Assembly (NCBI RefSeq): GCF_003334405.1
Contig: NZ_QOWM01000068.1
Reading direction: 5' to 3' (one strand)
Length of the DNA: 365 bases
From: Escherichia coli
Lineage (GTDB): Bacteria > Pseudomonadota > Gammaproteobacteria > Enterobacterales > Enterobacteriaceae
In this document: one piece after another, positions 1 through 365 of the stretch
Numbering within the stretch: position 1 is the first letter of the stretch
How the letters are laid out: each line of letters begins with the position of its first letter
Program-made: the position numbers and the translations under genes
The notes under the pieces: generated by a model
Databases searched by the model: none
Told to the model about the DNA's origin: nothing
What the model saw: the letters and a program-made list of their open reading frames with translations, nothing else

Positions 1-365
1 GCGCTGTTGGTCGCCAGGTAAAGATGCGGGCTTAACCGGATATCCGGCGGCAGCGCCCCCCACAGCCGCGCCAGCGTATGGCCGTCCGGCTGTGCTGCCT
101 TACCACCGCGCACCAGCCACATTGACTCACTGCGGCTGTACACCGCCTCCCCCGGCAGCAGCGGCTCAAAGTGAATGCTCCGCCCGCCGTTGTCGTTGAG
201 TATCAGTCCGTCATCACGTAGCTGTAAGCGGATATCAGAAGGCGCTTTCCAGCCGGGGCCGAAAACGCCCACCGGTGCAGGCGTCTTCGTCCGGTAGCTG
301 CTGTAGGTGCGGGAGAGAATGAACGGCAGCGGGCCGGGCAGCGCAAGGTCCGTCTCGCCGGGCAG
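1..365 (-). CDS. rhs: Internal fragment of an Rhs-family core protein (YD-repeat polymorphic toxin), N-terminal conserved region; partial at both ends
   Basis: Seen in sequence: the reverse-complement frame starting at + position 365 is open for 121 codons with no stop, and the trailing partial codon GC fits the Ala that I recall following ...LATNS in Rhs proteins. All other frames contain stops (for example minus frame 2 hits TGA after about 50 codons, minus frame 3 hits TGA after about 43 codons, + frame 3 stops at 33-35). Recall, not a search: the translation matches the conserved N-terminal region of E. coli Rhs core proteins (RhsA/B/C type), beginning roughly 55-60 residues into the protein, after the PAAR-like motif. 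High G+C (about 66%) also fits the known GC-rich Rhs core. Paralog is not assignable, so the symbol is given at family level only. Confidence 0.85.
   Translation of the reverse strand, partial: MPGETDLALPGPLPFILSRTYSSYRTKTPAPVGVFGPGWKAPSDIRLQLRDDGLILNDNGGRSIHFEPLLPGEAVYSRSESMWLVRGGKAAQPDGHTLARLWGALPPDIRLSPHLYLATNS

Follow-up and report, generated by a model that had tools for sequence, protein, structure and literature searches.

A P-x-D-I-R-L near-repeat and its 12-bp palindrome in the Escherichia coli rhsD gene do not exceed chance expectation

Two nearly identical hexapeptides, PSDIRL and PPDIRL, are encoded 64 codons apart in a 365-nucleotide stretch of E. coli DNA (hereafter the window), the second of them across a perfect 12-bp palindrome. 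Our analysis indicates that this "DIRL repeat" is not a real biological feature. Neither the peptide echo, nor the DNA repeat, nor the palindrome goes beyond chance, and the window is ordinary coding sequence of a known gene, rhsD, whose domains are already known. The pair is very probably a coincidence, in which two unrelated local elements have come to read nearly alike in the rhsD lineage. Below we set out the evidence for this reading, together with internal duplication, structural convergence, templated mutation and a DNA-level function as rival explanations.

Identity and context of the window

The window matches rhsD of E. coli K-12 MG1655, and of hundreds of other strains, at every one of its 365 bases (100% identity), and the rhs gene annotation carried by these reference genomes was confirmed for the window. 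The minus strand is a single 121-codon open frame that starts at window base 365. In the K-12 record (L001) the rhsD CDS runs from 5830 to 10110 and the window from 6001 to 6365, and the protein is the rhs element core protein RhsD (WP_000014739.1; 1426 aa annotated). Open reading frames of 35-47 aa in other frames are mechanical. The encoded segment takes in most of the N-terminal plug (DUF6531) of the Rhs toxin shell, together with the ~55 residues that come next. The preliminary description of this DNA was right to place it ahead of the repeats, in the N-terminal region of an Rhs reading frame coded on the minus strand. The features discussed here are collected in Table 1.

Table 1. Features of the 365-nt window (window coordinates, 1-based)
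Feature	Position	Strand	Details
Internal rhsD coding sequence	1-365	-	RhsD codons 58-178 plus 2 bases of codon 179; 100% identity to rhsD, translation
First post-plug stretch, RhsD 124-178	3-167	-	Two short helices and first β-shell strands (predicted); outside DUF6531, before the first recognisable RHS/YD repeats
Motif 2, PPDIRL (RhsD 163-168)	33-50	-	CCG CCG GAT ATC CGG TTA; GATATC at 39-44
Perfect 12-bp palindrome CCGGATATCCGG	36-47		Spells Pro-Asp-Ile-Arg codons
Part of DUF6531, N-terminal "plug/cork" closing the Rhs shell	168-365	-	RhsD 58-123 of domain 46-123; Pfam PF20148
Motif 1, PSDIRL (RhsD 99-104)	225-242	-	CCT TCT GAT ATC CGC TTA; GATATC at 231-236

Related copies are common. Of 5426 complete E. 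coli genomes, 3761 contain them, and the median is 3 per genome. A vgrG gene is the immediate upstream neighbour in strains CT02, 2014C-3307 and Combat11I9 and at the loci of P0001 and P0023. Unlike these rhsD-type genes of other strains, K-12 rhsD has ybbP as its upstream neighbour and no adjacent vgrG (L004, L005 and L006, 1-64; L007, 1-469; L009, 1-1425; L001, 2985-5399). In several strains the rhsD-type genes are disrupted by frameshifts or truncation, and the databases contain many entries that are just partial "DUF6531 domain-containing" fragments or that fuse VgrG with Rhs into chimeras (P0004, P0017). On the 3' side of K-12 rhsD (L001 10150-11700) are ybbC (YbbC/YhhH family), a pseudogene and small hypothetical ORFs; the pseudogene is an N-terminally truncated "RHS repeat-associated core domain", that is, an orphan toxin tip, and the layout is the usual Rhs C-terminal-displacement arrangement. 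Within the rhsD CDS the core has 64% GC and the tip only 37%.

The two hexapeptides and what chance would produce

Window bases 33-50 (TAACCGGATATCCGGCGG) and 225-242 (TAAGCGGATATCAGAAGG) give PPDIRL and PSDIRL respectively as reverse complements. The two motifs have 5 of 6 residues and 14 of 18 bases in common, extending to 15 of 19 bases in the repeat search at a spacing of 192. GATATC occurs in the window at only two places, starting at 39 and 231, which are in phase and 192 nt (64 codons) apart, and CCGGATATCCGG is the only palindrome of at least 12 bp in rhsD. Translation and base comparison bear out the preliminary description on every one of these observations: the positions of both hexapeptides, the 14 shared bases, the two GATATC sites with their spacing and phase, and the perfect palindrome. 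Asp, Ile and Leu are spelled by the same codons in both copies (GAT, ATC, TTA), and the Pro, Ser/Pro and Arg codons differ. TTA is rare in this gene, at 3 of the 41 Leu codons among the first 400 codons of rhsD, and yet it is used in both copies. The spacing from the preceding Trp to the Asp differs by one residue between the motifs.

Randomisation indicates how readily such features arise. When the residues of the 121-aa window were shuffled, a hexapeptide pair matching at 5 or more of 6 positions appeared in 4.7% of shuffles and an exact repeat of at least 4 residues in 15%. At the DNA level, codon-permuted ORFs contained an 18-mer pair matching at 14 or more of 18 bases in 31% of cases, a 12-mer pair matching at 11 or more of 12 in 23%, and a 19-mer pair matching at 15 or more of 19 in 12%; overall, a DNA repeat as good as the DIRL pair was found in 10-31% of permuted ORFs or sequences. 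For the fixed 12-mer TAASCGGATATC the expectation is 0, but that choice is post hoc and the figure uninformative, the proper test being any k-mer pair in permuted ORFs. Base shuffling produced a perfect palindrome of at least 12 bp in 14% of trials, and synonymous re-coding that kept the same protein and followed rhsD codon usage did so in 13%.

Two of these observations speak against coincidence. Before any correction for post-hoc selection, the 5/6 peptide match reaches a nominal 5% level, and the D, I and L codons, including the scarce TTA, are shared by both copies. We considered the shared codons (GAT, TTA) as evidence of DNA copying and rejected them as such, given that the Pro, Ser/Pro and Arg codons differ and that the overall DNA match is within chance. 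The alternative already offered in the preliminary description, namely chance in a Pro/Leu/Arg-rich, GC-rich reading frame, is supported by the peptide, DNA and palindrome randomisations alike.

Conservation of the motifs

To collect homologues, HMMER was run exhaustively against 1.84 billion cluster representatives, with 456 hits, and 90%-identity clusters were searched as well; the region was then aligned. Motif 1 belongs to a family pattern G-x-G-W-x-x-P-x-[D/E]-Φ-x-[L/V/I] in which Trp96 is invariant, the acidic residue is present in 30 of 32 sequences and the final L, V or I in 31, with Arg in only 13. The family pattern around motif 2 is distinct from this, namely [W/F]-x-x-[L/I/V]-P-x-x-Φ-R, with the preceding W or F in 30 of 32 sequences and the Arg in 23. 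The residues that make up the DIRL resemblance are scarce there, with D in 6, I in 2 and L in 9 of the 32 (D or E in 14). Pro occupies hexapeptide position 1 in 24-25 of the 32 sequences for both motifs, position 4 is hydrophobic in both, and within Enterobacteriaceae both retain x-Φ-R-L.

PPDIRL itself was found only in copies 83-100% identical to RhsD, 22 of the 24 being at 92-100%. Elsewhere motif 2 reads PEELRL in RhsA/B/C-type copies, PEDVRL, PEDLRL, PEAVRL, PEDIRT or PESVRT in other enterobacterial types, and also PLSLRE. DIR[L/T] is scattered among a few other enterobacterial copies, and PEDIRL, PEDIRT and PVDIRL variants are present in other lineages. Compared in register, the two hexapeptides agree at 5 of 6 positions only in rhsD-type proteins, at 3-4 in other enterobacterial proteins and at 0-2 in most homologues below 55% identity. 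The segment around RhsD ~145-165 is among the more diverged between rhsD and rhsA/B/C. The preliminary description had proposed asking whether both DIRL motifs are conserved; motif 2 proves to be poorly conserved across orthologues and is essentially a property of the rhsD lineage. A relic of an ancient duplication should not lose its similarity in the broader family, so this result counts directly against the duplication that the description had put forward.

Domain placement and predicted structure

Pfam DUF6531 (PF20148) matches RhsD 46-123 (E = 1.8e-18). The Pfam RHS_repeat model matches weakly at 209-243 and then from 320 onward, with no match over either DIRL segment. A phmmer comparison with solved structures gave the Tse5 shell chain 8cp6_B (E = 2e-45) and 7q97_A (E = 1.7e-23). 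RhsD 48-175 aligns to residues 48-171 of the Tse5 chain, beginning at its first residue, Pro48, and the DUF6531 region of RhsD aligns to Tse5 residues 48-145. In Tse5 the plug comprises residues 48-124, corresponds to DUF6531 and closes the barrel, with the YD-hairpin barrel coming next (PMC10684867); P. protegens RhsA has the same cork-like plug at residues 268-386, sealing the N-terminal opening of the cocoon (PMC8765631). Motif 1 lies inside the plug and motif 2 ~40 residues beyond it, at the start of the shell.

RhsD 45-240 was modelled with AlphaFold2 from the 32-sequence alignment, giving a mean pLDDT of 87.9 and values of 90-97 at both motifs. Foldseek with this model returned 8cp6_B at the top (E = 4.7e-12, TM 0.72, 30% identity), followed by ten other solved Rhs chains. 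Beyond the plug the model places strands at RhsD 131-134 and 139-143, helices at 156-160 and 164-167, and a strand at 173-176 (pLDDT 95-97). In motif 1, P99-S-D101 is predicted to form a short helical turn and R103-R107 the first hairpin strand, paired with G110-N114. In motif 2, P164-R167 is modelled as a one-turn helix after the helix at 156-160, L168-L172 as coil, and the strand at 173-176 follows. A helical turn at P-x-D thus begins both motifs in the model (model residues 55-57 and 120-123), with I-R-L then modelled as strand in motif 1 versus helix and coil in motif 2. Judged from the DSSP strings of the predicted model and the domain boundaries of homologues, the motifs would occupy non-equivalent structural elements, and the model together with homology to Tse5 suggests distinct roles for them. 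The preliminary description had suggested looking for two structurally equivalent elements at these positions; the prediction instead offers a plug turn and strand on one side and a post-plug helix and coil on the other.

These structural data bear most directly on local convergence. On that account each motif would form a Pro-x-Asp capping turn and then a hydrophobic-Arg-hydrophobic stretch that packs against the shell, and selection would keep the two similar without common ancestry. Such an account would explain the modelled turn at the start of both motifs, the conserved aromatic position ahead of each (the invariant Trp of motif 1 and the W/F of motif 2), the frequent Pro at position 1, the hydrophobic position 4 and the shared enterobacterial x-Φ-R-L. 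A Trp 3-4 residues upstream of each motif, taken with the predicted Pro-x-Asp turn at each start, is also a point against plain coincidence. However, the likeness in the model ends with the turn, as the same three residues then go into a β-strand in one motif and into helix and coil in the other. Motif 1 alone conserves the acidic residue (30/32 against 14/32) and motif 2 alone the Arg (23/32 against 13/32), the Trp-to-Asp spacing is off by one residue, and the family profiles do not align at the motifs. On balance we think convergence unlikely.

Flanking similarity and the duplication reading

An ancient internal tandem duplication of ~64 codons in the pre-repeat N-terminal region would account for two motifs that are in phase, 64 codons apart and alike in both residues and bases, and it would suit a protein family that consists of repeated β-hairpins. 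The segments flanking the motifs, which the preliminary description had suggested aligning as a tandem duplication, have no detectable similarity. HHalign of the family profiles for RhsD 58-143 and 144-240 gave a probability of 0.7% and E = 0.084, a value comparable with those of reversed-sequence controls (E = 0.25-0.29). Its best local match lay away from the DIRL motifs and paired LNDNGGRSIHF (113-123) with MADRFGRTLTY (212-222), through a generic D-x-x-G-R hairpin turn. Smith-Waterman comparison within the single sequence likewise chose segments other than DIRL, its best pair being LPGETDLALPGPLP and VPGAEDVLPAPLP (P = 0.065). The offset-64 diagonal is not a preferred one: it ranked 12 of 161, and all shuffles (100%) attained its score. 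Duplication must also contend with a motif similarity that drops with evolutionary distance, with a second DIRL essentially restricted to the rhsD lineage, and with the location of one motif in the plug domain and the other in the shell, where the predicted secondary structure differs. The vestige of ancient duplication envisaged in the preliminary description is therefore unsupported by conservation, flanks or structural units, and we regard it as extremely unlikely.

Two side observations came from these comparisons. Derivation of the plug from YD repeats was considered and rejected: the plug and shell profiles matched at E ~0.09 and a probability below 1%, only the D-x-x-G-R turn aligned, and the match is non-significant. 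Such a turn is what matches between the last plug hairpin, LNDNGGRSIHF (window 159-191, minus strand), and the first YD-like hairpin, MADRFGRTLTY (L001 6463-6495), and a D-x-x-G-R turn was picked again when the plug was compared with shell residues 205-700 (E = 0.094, non-significant). At the sequence level there is thus a non-significant hint that the final plug hairpin may resemble a degenerate YD repeat, by way of a D-x-x-G-R-x-x-x-F/Y turn. The second observation is a weak internal echo of LPGETDLALPGPLP (window 324-365, minus strand; RhsD 58-71) in VPGAEDV-LPAPLP (L001 6400-6438; RhsD 191-203), with a score of 37 (the P = 0.065 pair above). It is probably compositional chance, because both segments are Pro-rich and the second is gap-rich and poorly conserved outside Enterobacteriaceae.

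Codons, palindrome and DNA-level readings

We compared rhsD with E. coli copies at 97.5%, 95.9%, 94.5%, 83% and 78% identity and with three more distant loci. At motif 1, GAT ATC CGC TTA is kept in rhsB/C-type and PEDVRL-type copies, and farther out the coding becomes GAT ATT CAT CTG and GAC GTC AGC CTG. Motif 2 is spelled CCG GAA GAA CTC CGC TTA in the rhsC type, CCG GAA GAG CTT CGC CTG in the rhsB type and CCG GAA GAT GTT CGC CTG in the PEDVRL type, with CCT GAA TCC GTT CGC ACC and CCA CTG AGC CTG CGT GAA in farther copies. Among the copies compared, only those of the rhsD lineage have the palindrome and the second GATATC, and CCGGATATCCGG was not found in the rhsB/C-type, PEDVRL-type, P0010 and P0023 DNAs. 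The palindrome exists because CCG/CGG and GAT/ATC are reverse-complement codon pairs (Pro/Arg and Asp/Ile). With rhsD codon usage, the probability of spelling P-D-I-R as CCG GAT ATC CGG is ~5%.

The codon changes that set rhsD apart are clustered at window 33-50 (RhsD 163-168), with homologous positions in L002, L003, L007, L008 and L009. This cluster could reflect stepwise drift or one multi-base event. A templated origin within the rhsD lineage might take the form of a micro-conversion from motif 1, 192 bp off, or of a quasi-palindrome correction that perfected CCGGATATCCGG. Relative to all sampled enterobacterial copies the changes fall in adjacent codons, GAA to CCG (three bases), GTT or CTC to ATC, and CGC to CGG, and their product is a perfect palindrome having GATATCCG in common with motif 1, points that favour a templated event. 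But the codons on either side do not match motif 1 (CCG against TCT, CGG against CGC), so a conversion tract would be limited to 8 nt or less, far below known tracts. No plausible imperfect-palindrome precursor was seen in the sampled relatives, the PEDIRL, PEDIRT and PVDIRL variants of other lineages suggest ordinary stepwise substitution, and the surrounding segment (~145-165) is itself among the more diverged parts of rhsD relative to rhsA/B/C. We judge templated mutation very unlikely. If it were true, it would represent natural template-switch mutagenesis inside a "rearrangement hot spot" gene.

On a further reading the DNA itself would be functional, with the palindrome and the paired EcoRV-type sites serving in protein binding or recombination or forming a cruciform. 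The palindrome is perfect over 12 bp and the only two GATATC sites of the window stand 192 bp apart, which is the kind of pattern that invites such a reading, but we give it virtually no credence. A palindrome of this length is expected in ~13% of equivalent sequences, and it is missing from paralogues and orthologues that have the same protein architecture. The local fold around it is no more stable than shuffles (z = 0.25), a loopless 12-bp palindrome cannot form a stable hairpin, and the site is deep within a 4.3-kb CDS. Rfam searching gave no noteworthy match. An RNA element on either strand was considered as well and rejected, the Rfam search having returned only a sub-threshold, chance-level match to isrB (window 262-355, minus strand; 17.2 bits against a gathering score of 35, E = 0.85).

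Discussion

Coincidence between two unrelated elements offers a simple path to what is seen in rhsD. Motif 1 (99-104) is a moderately conserved plug element, P-x-[D/E]-Φ-x-Φ, predicted to make a turn and then to open a β-hairpin with its first strand. Motif 2 (163-168) represents a separate conserved pattern, W-x-x-Φ-P-x-x-Φ-R, with a short helix predicted where the shell begins. PE[D/E/A][V/L]RL is the form of motif 2 in most enterobacterial Rhs proteins, and substitutions in the rhsD lineage probably turned this into PPDIRL, raising the match with motif 1 to 5/6. We infer that PE..RL is the ancestral form and PPDIRL the derived one. The palindrome and the second GATATC are automatic by-products of coding with CCG GAT ATC CGG.

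The outcome is that the repeat reveals no hidden modularity in the Rhs N-terminal plug, and that the palindrome does not act as a signal for regulation or recombination. A practical lesson for sequence scans also follows. Short perfect palindromes in GC-rich ORFs should be checked against the reading frame before any DNA-level meaning is assigned to them, because CCG GAT ATC CGG, encoding Pro-Asp-Ile-Arg, is automatically palindromic.

Comparison with known Rhs proteins

Pseudomonas aeruginosa Tse5 (PDB 8cp6) is the closest structurally characterised relative, with the same domain order and fold as RhsD at the TM score and identity given above. Neither DIRL is present in Tse5, which has PGESMHL and PAELQT in place of PSDIRL and PPDIRL; in register, these two Tse5 segments have only the leading Pro and one Leu in common. 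The Tse5 plug hairpin G-R-x-I-x-F, in contrast, is nearly invariant in the family and conserved in RhsD, and in Tse5 it anchors the cleaved N-terminal fragment. As a separate observation, RhsD N47-P48 (RhsD 1-47, L001 5830-5970 region) aligns with K47-P48 of Tse5, its N-terminal autocleavage site, and with H304-P305 of RhsA.

Next to Tse5 come other T6SS Rhs effectors. By sequence and fold, P. protegens RhsA (7q97), Photorhabdus Rhs1/Tre23 (7pq5) and Salmonella bongori Rhs (8qjb-d) have a plug-plus-cocoon organisation like that of RhsD. These three carry long N-terminal extensions (prePAAR, TMD and PAAR), which K-12 RhsD is without. The RhsD N-terminus gives only a weak PAAR_motif match (E = 0.11). 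Rhs proteins do possess a genuine internal repeat, the YD/RHS repeat (Pfam PF05593). Neither DIRL segment matches it, and the RhsD plug hairpin D-N-G-G-R-S-I-H-F bears a weak likeness to its D-x-x-G-R-x-x-x-Y turn.
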